This document shows, piece after piece, positions 36,563 to 40,073 of a stretch of DNA of 64,000 nucleotides. The stretch comes from Eledone cirrhosa (Eukaryota): positions 20,894,001-20,958,000 of the forward strand of contig OZ024766.1 of the NCBI GenBank assembly GCA_964016885.1, given 5' to 3'. A program made the position numbers and the translations under genes. The first letter of the stretch is position 1. Every line of letters starts with the position of its first letter. Under the pieces are notes generated by a model that had not been told where the DNA came from, did no database searches, and was given only the letters and a program-made list of their open reading frames with translations.

Positions 36563-36568
36563 ATATAT

Positions 36569-37037
36569 AGTCTTAGGTGAGCCATTCAGAAAGATTTGCA
36601 GGCCACACGTTGCCCACGCCCGCTATAAACCTTTACTTCAGTGGTGGTGTCGTGCATCAGCACCTGATGATGTAGCTGCAGCGACGCAGCTGTTTTTTAT
36701 GTGGCAATGTTTCTGGCATATTTTAGTCTTAGGTGAGCCATTCAGAAAGATTTGCAGGCCACACGTTGCCCATGCCCGCTATAAACCTTTACTTCAGTGG
36801 TGGTGTCGTGCATCAGCACCTGATGATGTAGCTGCAGCGACGCAGCTGTTTGTTATGTGGCAATGTTTCTGGCATATTTTAGTCTTAGGTGAGCCATTCA
36901 GAAAGATTTGCAGGCCACACGTTGCCCATGCCCGCTATAAACCTTTACTTCAGTGGTGGTGTCGTGCACCAGCACCTGATGATGTAGCTGCAGCGACGCA
37001 GCTGTTTGTTATGTGGCAATGTTTCTTGCATATTTTA
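36569..37037. repeat. 156-bp unit x3 covering the ZP-A C-terminal codons, stop codon and proximal 3'UTR
   Basis: tcttaggtgag at 36571, 36727 and 36883. Confidence 0.92.
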
Positions 37038-37273
37038 AACGTGCAGAAAATTTGGCCGATGTAATTGTTCCCCTTTGGTTTGTGGATTAAGAAATAGGGG
37101 CTGACAATCGTGTCGCCATTGTTCAGAAATCCTGCTCCCTTCGCGAACGGTGACCCCGTGCCACATCCGTTCTTCAGCAGGAGCATGCGCTTGTGGCCCG
37201 CCTTAGCGTAGCAGCTCTTTATGACGATGTTGTGGATTTTGTTGGAGTCATTCATTTCGGCAATGAGACGAAC
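36950..37273 (-). CDS. ZP-A exon 4: VEZP/VERL-type ZP-C domain
   Basis: caccaccag|GTT; VRLIAEM...KSCYA...LLKNGCGTGSPFAKGAGF...IVSPYF...FCTFKICKKHCHITNSC...RHHH-TGA; the GCG-G...GF...SPYF...C-F--C motif is recognised from abalone VEZP/VERL ZP-C. Confidence 0.88.
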   Translation of the reverse strand, partial: VRLIAEMNDSNKIHNIVIKSCYAKAGHKRMLLLKNGCGTGSPFAKGAGFLNNGDTIVSPYFLIHKPKGNNYIGQIFCTFKICKKHCHITNSCVAAATSSGAGARHHH

Positions 37274-38507: not shown

Positions 38508-39280
38508 CTTCTTTGTTGCCGTTACCCTGGTAACCGTTTGTCCTTTCACATCCTTCAGTCGCATAAGAATGTTGTGTCTCTTTTTGACGCTGATCCTTGC
38601 TGTGGTCTTCGCGGGACCCTTTGACCCCGATATTCCGGGCTTGGCCCCGTTTGGGTGTCTTGTTAAACCTGTGTGAGGCGCGGCCCCTGAATGAATCCCG
38701 TGGATGGGGCTGGCGTGTGAGTGACCCAGCCCAGAATGACCCCCGGGAAAAGAGCCGGCCCCAGAATGACCTCTGTGAAAAGGGCCGGCCCCAGAATGAC
38801 CTCCGTATAAAGGGCCGGCGGCCCCAGAATGACCTCCATGAAAAGGGCCACCGGCCCCAGAATGAGCACCGTGAAAAGGGCCGGCCCCAGAATGACCTCT
38901 GTGAAAAGGGCCGGCCCCAGAATGACCTCCGTGAAAAGGGCCACCGCCGGCCCCAGAATGACCCGCGGGAAAAGGGCCTACCCCGAAATGAGGCGCCGCG
39001 CCACCCACCGCCGCCACACGGGCGTGGTGGTCCTCTGCCCCAGCAGCCGCCGGCGCGAGGGCGACCGAGGTGTTGGCGCCGGCGCCGGCGCCGGCCCCCG
39101 TCCGTCCGTGCCTCTCGAACGAGCACACGATGTCGTACTTCTTGAGCAGGAGCTTCGAGGCAGTGGTGCCGACCAGCAGCTGGATGGAGAAGATGTCCAG
39201 GTGCCCCTGACGCCCCATTCGGCAGGTGTGTGTGTCACAGGTGTGCTGGTGGCAGATGGGAATCACTAATTGGAACTCAC
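38508..39280 (-). CDS. ZP-A exon 3: rest of ZP-N, Gly/His-rich GHSGAGPFH repeat linker, start of ZP-C
   Basis: ctatttccag|GT GAG...AAG AAG|gtgagt; 773 bp, phase 1 to 0, stop-free; GC-rich. Confidence 0.88.
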
Positions 39281-39905: not shown

Positions 39906-40073
39906 CTGGTTCCCTAGAAAAGACGTGGTCCCCATCTTTACACTTAGCCCAAACGTAGAGGTCAAGCAGAGAGGTCAGCAGGATCCTGTCGTTGCACACT
40001 ACGTCTACATGGATAGGGGCGGTCGTGGTTGGAGTGGCGATTGGTAACAGACAGAGCAGTGAGAGGAGGGTGA
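39906..40073 (-). CDS. ZP-A exon 2: signal-peptide core and first half of ZP-N
   Basis: ctccacag|TC ACC...CCA G|gtgagt; 168 bp, phase 1 to 1; [56 protein letters not shown]. Confidence 0.88.

Follow-up and report, generated by a model that had tools for sequence, protein, structure and literature searches.

The 64,000-nucleotide stretch of Eledone cirrhosa DNA analysed here (the window) carries two tandem paralogues, ZP-A and ZP-B, on its minus strand (Table 1). ZP-A, as modelled from the sequence, is a clean four-exon gene running from 42516 to 36950; its three introns have GT-AG ends, and the spliced frame stays open for 426 codons, giving a protein of 426 residues. The Gly/His-rich interval that had drawn attention to this gene is covered by one stop-free minus-strand frame. 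The most hydrophobic segment of the protein lies at its N-terminus (residues 8–18, Kyte-Doolittle 2.65), and ZP-A is predicted to be secreted. The open frame of ZP-B extends over 2095 codons; its first exon was searched for in the window and not found. The 5.7-kb last exon of ZP-B encodes ZP-C followed by a 1792-residue tail that is rich in Asp, Gly and Ser and built from several repeat types.

Table 1 Features of ZP-A and ZP-B in the window.
Feature	Position	Strand	Description
ZP-A exon 1	42501–42516	–	ATG and first five codons of the predicted signal peptide, followed by a GTAAGA donor whose phase suits exon 2; inferred
ZP-A exon 2	39906–40073	–	Remainder of the predicted signal peptide and first ZP-N strands (C32, C50); AG/GT ends
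ZP-A exon 3	38508–39280	–	Remainder of ZP-N (C71, C76, C81, C114), entire linker with insert, first ZP-C strand (IHP equivalent)
ZP-A exon 4	36950–37273	–	ZP-C with six cysteines, stop codon; Pfam VERL_C, E 1.4e-20
ZP-A linker insert	38616–39056	–	About 146–147 extra residues (137–283); ends uncertain within 125–289
Gly/His tandem repeat	38673–38978	–	Nine HSG-anchored units; unit lengths 30–45 nt, all multiples of 3
ZP-B, tandem paralogue	8966–18300	–	Exons 18300–18118, 15804–15416 and 14683–8966; introns at places matching those of ZP-A

The window is saturated with tandem repeats, so that expansions arise freely here: repeat-free stretches of at least 60 bases make up only 16,336 of its 64,000 bases. 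The 3′ end of ZP-A, comprising the last three cysteines and the stop codon, is triplicated in a 156-bp array of 98% identity (36568–37037). Head to head with ZP-A lie two plus-strand exons of an FAD-dependent amine oxidoreductase (46301–46453 and 53447–53593; Pfam NAD_binding_8, E 1.9e-07, and Amino_oxidase, E 0.0096), which belong to a presumably renalase-like gene and provide a useful synteny marker beside ZP-A. Two fragments at 45274–45798 and 47413–48515, in which we see a resemblance to the last part of a LINE-type reverse transcriptase, gave no convincing match in a Pfam scan, and some of this sequence has multiplied into a tandem array with a 96-bp unit. An assembly gap, filled with 200 N, lies at 55995–56194.

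The family assignment of ZP-A rests mainly on its last exon, which matches Pfam VERL_C (PF25272) with 74.6 bits against a cut-off of 27.2; the last exon of ZP-B matches the same entry (E 8.2e-07), and a Pfam scan of the other four exons tested from the two genes gave no match. An exhaustive protein search with exon 4 returned 24 proteins, eight of which were scanned with Pfam, yielding VERL_C in seven and a chance PAN-domain match in one (P0024). Against a profile of 21 homologues, the spliced ZP-A scores E 8.3e-54. Word-index protein searches with exons 3 and 4 returned nothing, but the method is insensitive, the exon 4 run having missed a protein 60% identical to it (P0002). A protein search with P0002 as query recovered only itself among 75 candidates, and a PDB sequence search with exon 4 gave one chance match (E 1.2).

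The closest relative found is P0002, named ‘vitelline envelope sperm lysin receptor [Octopus bimaculoides]’ at NCBI. With the insert left out, 124 of 242 aligned residues are identical (51%), the alignment covering ZP-A residues 26–124 (45%) and 290–414 (60%). Exon 2 aligns both to P0002 and to the matching exon of ZP-B (pairwise E 1e-06), and exon 3 has no significant BLAST match to its ZP-B counterpart. P0002 is the sister of ZP-A in two trees, both built without P0005, P0022 and P0024, with support of 92/89 and, when the long branches ZP-B, P0015 and P0021 are left out, 100/99; it may be either an orthologue or a paralogue. This kinship points to an octopod origin of the window. ZP-A keeps all ten family cysteines, four in ZP-N (C32, C50, C81 and C114) and six in ZP-C (C340, C356, C396, C401, C405 and C411), which align with invariant or near-invariant columns, and has an extra pair, C71/C76, in common with P0002.

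An AlphaFold2 model of P0002 built from 21 sequences has a pLDDT of 80. In Foldseek, all 11 matches with E of at most 0.001 are uromodulin, egg-coat filaments or ZP3, with best E values of 3e-07 to 5e-04 against ZP filaments (6zya, 6tql, 28yj, 8rki and 3nk3). The top eight VIA entries are likewise all ZP-module proteins, VERL among them (28yj, Z 10.6, rmsd 40 over 192 residues; VERL repeat 5mr2, Z 9.7, rmsd 2.4 over 90), and the Atlas neighbours agree with this assignment. A complex prediction with the two halves of P0002 cut mid-linker, run without an alignment, scored 0.01 and speaks neither for nor against their association. There is good support for placing ZP-A among the ZP proteins of the VERL/VEZP family and for its linker insert being large, coded and lineage-restricted. 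ZP-A is likely a building block of an octopod egg envelope or of another extracellular coat. An egg-coat role is less certain because ‘vitelline envelope’ is a database label and mollusc ZP proteins also occur in shell matrix; according to PMC9290575, VEZP proteins occur throughout the molluscs and other ZP proteins of this phylum are components of the shell. Identity with abalone VERL was considered and rejected, as ZP-A has no N-terminal ZP-N array and its single ZP-N directly follows the signal peptide; a six-frame scan of the window revealed no ZP-N segment besides those of ZP-A and ZP-B.

ZP-A ends 15 residues after its last cysteine, and neither a basic cleavage site nor an EHP or a membrane anchor is present in this tail (highest 19-residue hydropathy, 0.5). 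Six of the 21 homologues (P0002, P0004, P0007, P0013, P0023 and P0025) also end within 22 residues of the last cysteine, with no basic site and no His repeat, although some may be truncated models; they possibly form a tail-less secreted class. That these tail-less members lack a His repeat suggests that the family does not need a His switch for assembly. Mature ZP-A is basic by calculation (pI 9.9, about +23 at pH 8.1), whereas ZP-B is acidic (pI 4.05, about –360 at pH 8.1), and the two might, purely as a hypothesis, co-assemble. P0002 is extremely basic, with a pI of 10.7. The ZP-B tail closes with a polybasic stretch and a short hydrophobic segment, which could represent a displaced cleavage site and EHP.

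What sets ZP-A apart is the length of its linker. From the last ZP-N cysteine to the leucine of the first ZP-C strand (IHP strand), 40–43 residues are found in 21 of 21 homologues (the 24 matches minus the chance match P0024 and the partial sequences P0005 and P0022). The same span measures 43 residues in P0002, 48 in ZP-B, where the short Asp/Gly linker reported in the earlier note is present with its run of four Asp followed by Gly, and 189 in ZP-A. The ZP-A linker is more than four times longer than the usually fixed length, and the canonical short linker of conserved length is not what this protein has (189 versus 40–43). When aligned to ZP-A, the 21-homologue profile matches residues 5–123 and 279–417 and skips about 155 residues against 8 profile positions, confirming that the repeat sits between ZP-N and ZP-C. 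Nineteen P0002 residues (102–120) correspond to 165 in ZP-A, and the sole low-confidence stretch of the P0002 model (107–122) falls mostly within them. Residues flanking the insert still align with P0002 on both sides, weakly on the N-terminal one.

The HSG tripeptide occurs in none of the 24 matches of the exhaustive search, all of which lack the repeat; the most His-rich 50-residue segment of each contains 1–6 His, compared with 10 in ZP-A. The earlier note had tied its reading to the repeat being kept in orthologues. Its absence from the closest relative and from every match weighs against that reading only in part, since the relative may be a paralogue.

Linkers of about 22–26 residues are reported for polymerising ZP proteins in PMC7737619. 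The uromodulin linker is described there as a belt, about 24 residues long, that inserts its first half into the ZP-C of the previous subunit and pairs its second half with the ZP-N of the next. In fish egg coats, the linker has an exposed middle, and a cut at this point disrupts the filament (10.1101/2023.06.21.544075). Given this two-half arrangement with an exposed middle, a mid-linker insert could loop out and leave both ends working; by the same analogy, it would also add slack to a load-bearing strap. The start of the ZP-A linker (residues 118–131; 39113–39072, minus strand) carries an R-x-x-R site (118–121) and an N-glycosylation sequon (N131). In fish ZP3, a glycan is described within the first linker strand (10.1101/2023.06.21.544075).

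Most of the insert is a Gly/His tandem repeat of nine HSG-anchored units with a ten-residue consensus, occupying residues 163–264 within exon 3. Seven units are full (10–12 residues), the eighth is degenerate with 15 residues and the ninth is partial, in agreement with the initial estimate of about nine copies of a 10–12-residue unit. The interval originally assigned to the repeat (38640–39110) holds as the extent of the whole low-complexity insert including its Gly/Ala lead-in, but the repeat proper is confined to the narrower span in Table 1. GHSGAGPFH occurs three times exactly and HSGA eight times. The tandem repeats finder (TRF) reports an array of period 30 with 6.9 copies, 85% matches and a score of 302, and none of 5000 residue shuffles of exon 3 reaches eight copies of any 4-mer (maximum 5), which together argue that the repeat is not a product of chance.

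The 102-residue repeat contains 33% Gly, 18% His (18 residues), 13% Ala, 7% Phe and 1% Tyr (a single residue); the insert as a whole contains 43 Gly, 24 Ala, 22 His, 15 Pro, 14 Ser, 8 Phe and 1 Tyr. The repeat has no acidic residue, aromatics recur every 9–12 residues (8% in total), and six HxxH pairs form at the head-to-tail junctions between units. Its calculated charge falls from +15.5 at pH 5.5 to +1.3 at pH 8.1. The insert is predicted to be disordered, 71% of the repeat being disorder-promoting residues. Single-sequence AlphaFold2 of exon 3 returned a pLDDT of 36 throughout, even in the folded part, and is therefore uninformative on disorder or a regular repeat fold; an ESM Atlas search with the repeat region gave no usable match.

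We also considered whether a cryptic intron might take the repeat out. The frame contains 44 GT-AG pairs, but the acceptor pyrimidine fraction is at most 0.59 among the best 10 of the 44, compared with 0.71–0.94 in the six real acceptors, and we rejected this candidate because the acceptors on offer are poor. Splicing out of the repeat, the other outcome that the earlier note named as counting against its reading, thus looks unlikely.

The explanation we lean towards, tentatively, is that the insert is a looped-out, disordered His-rich tether modulating matrix cohesion through pH and metal. Slippage in frame, probably recent, would have lengthened the linker by about 146 residues, and the insert would likely loop out from a flexible mid-linker with both linker ends keeping their strap role. 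His residues would become uncharged on passing from an acidic secretory compartment to sea water, and HxxH pairs together with Phe stickers may then form weak, reversible cross-links between filaments. The six HxxH pairs and the calculated fall in charge make metal and pH effects plausible, the pairs being suggestive of Zn or Cu coordination, although affinity for metal in vitro is common among His-rich peptides. The repeat would thereby tune the material, would not be needed to start ZP assembly and would not act as a beak-type coacervation module. We infer the secretion, polymerisation, loop-out and metal binding of ZP-A that this scheme entails. The tight conservation of linker length, both in the family and in polymerising ZP proteins, means that the insert may instead impair canonical assembly.

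A possible but less likely explanation is a minisatellite that expanded in a near-neutral manner, its position in an exposed loop making the insert tolerable, with selection acting on the reading frame alone. The seven core units share a mean DNA identity of 91%, two of them being identical, and their first five codons do not vary even at silent sites. Purifying selection is not detectable from the nine distinct changes among the core units, three of them synonymous, a number that gives low power (pN/pS 0.73–0.85, not different from 1; P 0.45). The high identity and the lack of detectable purifying selection make the repeat look young, and it probably is. All eight measured unit lengths are multiples of three, as are 20 of 20 coding TRF rows with a period of at least 20, compared with 20 of 68 non-coding rows, although these rows overlap, come mostly from ZP-B and are not independent. 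GC-rich triplet slippage would give in-frame indels without selection on the peptide and could by itself keep the repeat in frame. The sister sequence P0002 lacks the repeat, and the repeat-saturated surroundings, in which even the 3′ end of ZP-A is triplicated, fit a neutral origin. Yet His is abundant beyond the repeat as well, both in those parts of the insert that flank it (the whole insert has 22 His in 147 residues) and in a C-terminal HHH, and where 21 of 21 homologues hold the linker at 40–43 residues, a gain of 146 would be unlikely to go unnoticed.

The original proposal was a squid-beak mechanism. In its strongest form, a beak-protein-like pH switch would drive coacervation, gate ZP assembly and replace the missing cleavage-site/EHP control, which we consider improbable. 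The bare tail of ZP-A, with no basic site, EHP or anchor past the last cysteine, and the calculated loss of repeat charge towards pH 8.1 speak for it. However, the 102-residue repeat has no GHGxY, no GxG[FY]A (GAGFA-type) motif, a single Tyr and few aromatics, whereas beak peptides need at least two GHGLY motifs for phase separation and lose it on Tyr-to-Ala or His-to-Lys replacement, those with one GHGLY or with Tyr removed staying soluble (PMC6884462). PMC11931252 gives the same motifs, GHGxY and GAGFA, for beak proteins (HBPs), in which the GAGFA/GFA type is optional. The beak mechanism is thus not borne out, and homology to beak proteins was rejected, the resemblance being compositional only. 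Because Phe strengthens beak-peptide coacervates (PMC10766971), a weaker version of the reading stays open. Mature ZP-A would moreover remain strongly positive at pH 8.1, and the tail-less homologues manage without any His repeat. Of the original reading, the ZP identity, the position within the linker and a His-rich segment with six HxxH pairs and a calculated pH-dependent charge are supported.

A bolder extension of the tether, and an improbable one, is a stretchable ZP filament in which the 146 residues would store some 50 nm of extra length for each subunit inside the load-bearing linker, shut by sacrificial His–metal bonds, with ZP-A and ZP-B co-assembling and a pH shift, in place of furin/EHP release, as the start. 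If true, it would make the octopod egg coat a self-healing, byssus-like material derived from an egg-coat module.

Also improbable is an uncoupling of ZP-N and ZP-C by the long linker, as proposed for LET-653, which would leave them as tethered or cleaved separate modules and ZP-A as no canonical filament subunit. R-x-x-R is the minimal furin motif, and the one in ZP-A lies directly after ZP-N; this site is weak, however, and not kept in P0002, and ZP-N, 45% identical to that of P0002, has lost none of its cysteines. Precedent comes from the long linker of LET-653, which acts through ZP-C alone (PMC7665627), and from the disruption of fish egg-coat filaments by a mid-linker cut (10.1101/2023.06.21.544075). 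It is very improbable that the repeat is missing from the protein through a cryptic intron, assembly-error inflation or a silent gene: other frames across it are also open and ZP-A is not among the matches of a representative protein library, but the four-exon frame is intact with strong splice sites and poor cryptic acceptors, and the units are not identical, as copies produced by an assembly error would be.

In solved ZP filaments, subunits are locked together by the linker, which acts as a strap and whose length is considered to be under constraint. Comparing ZP-A with the repeat-less P0002 offers a natural way to learn whether a long insert in this strap is compatible with a ZP module, and also bears on how assembly is controlled in ZP proteins lacking a cleavage-site/EHP tail. 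If the His repeat works, an egg-coat scaffold has received a materials-type module; should it be neutral, the insert still marks a site that accepts insertions. Little work on the egg-envelope proteins of cephalopods appears in the open-access literature searched, in which we found no match for a His-rich ZP protein or for cephalopod VERL-like proteins, an absence that carries little weight; the accessible parts of PMC7456536 and PMC13361971 contain nothing on His-rich linkers.

Among known systems, ZP-A is most like P0002 and the VERL family, with which it shares ZP-N and ZP-C, the ten family cysteines, a basic ZP-C and an end soon after the last cysteine; P0002 differs in its linker span (43 versus 189) and in lacking the Gly/His repeat. 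Uromodulin and vertebrate egg-coat filaments have far shorter linkers, of about 22–26 residues, and their assembly is released by cleavage and loss of the EHP, in a tail that ZP-A lacks. Histidines in a Gly-rich context that bind Zn or Cu reversibly occur in Nereis Nvjp-1, the His-rich ends of mussel preCol and the prion octarepeat, and His–metal cross-links are found in annelid jaws and mussel byssus. None of these is a ZP protein, and the likeness to ZP-A is one of description only. The beak proteins DgHBP-1/2 resemble the insert in having modular Gly/His-rich repeats with aromatics, ionisable near neutral pH, but they are themselves small, disordered proteins, composed of GHGxY and GAGFA motifs and dependent on Tyr; ZP-A uses Phe and embeds its repeat in a folded ZP module. 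LET-653 of Caenorhabditis elegans is also a ZP protein with an unusually long linker between ZP-N and ZP-C, so that long ZP linkers have precedent. Its linker, of unclear impact in a protein that works through ZP-C, is predicted to be heavily O-glycosylated, and LET-653 differs further from ZP-A in having PAN domains, a furin-type site and a C-terminal patch (PMC7665627).
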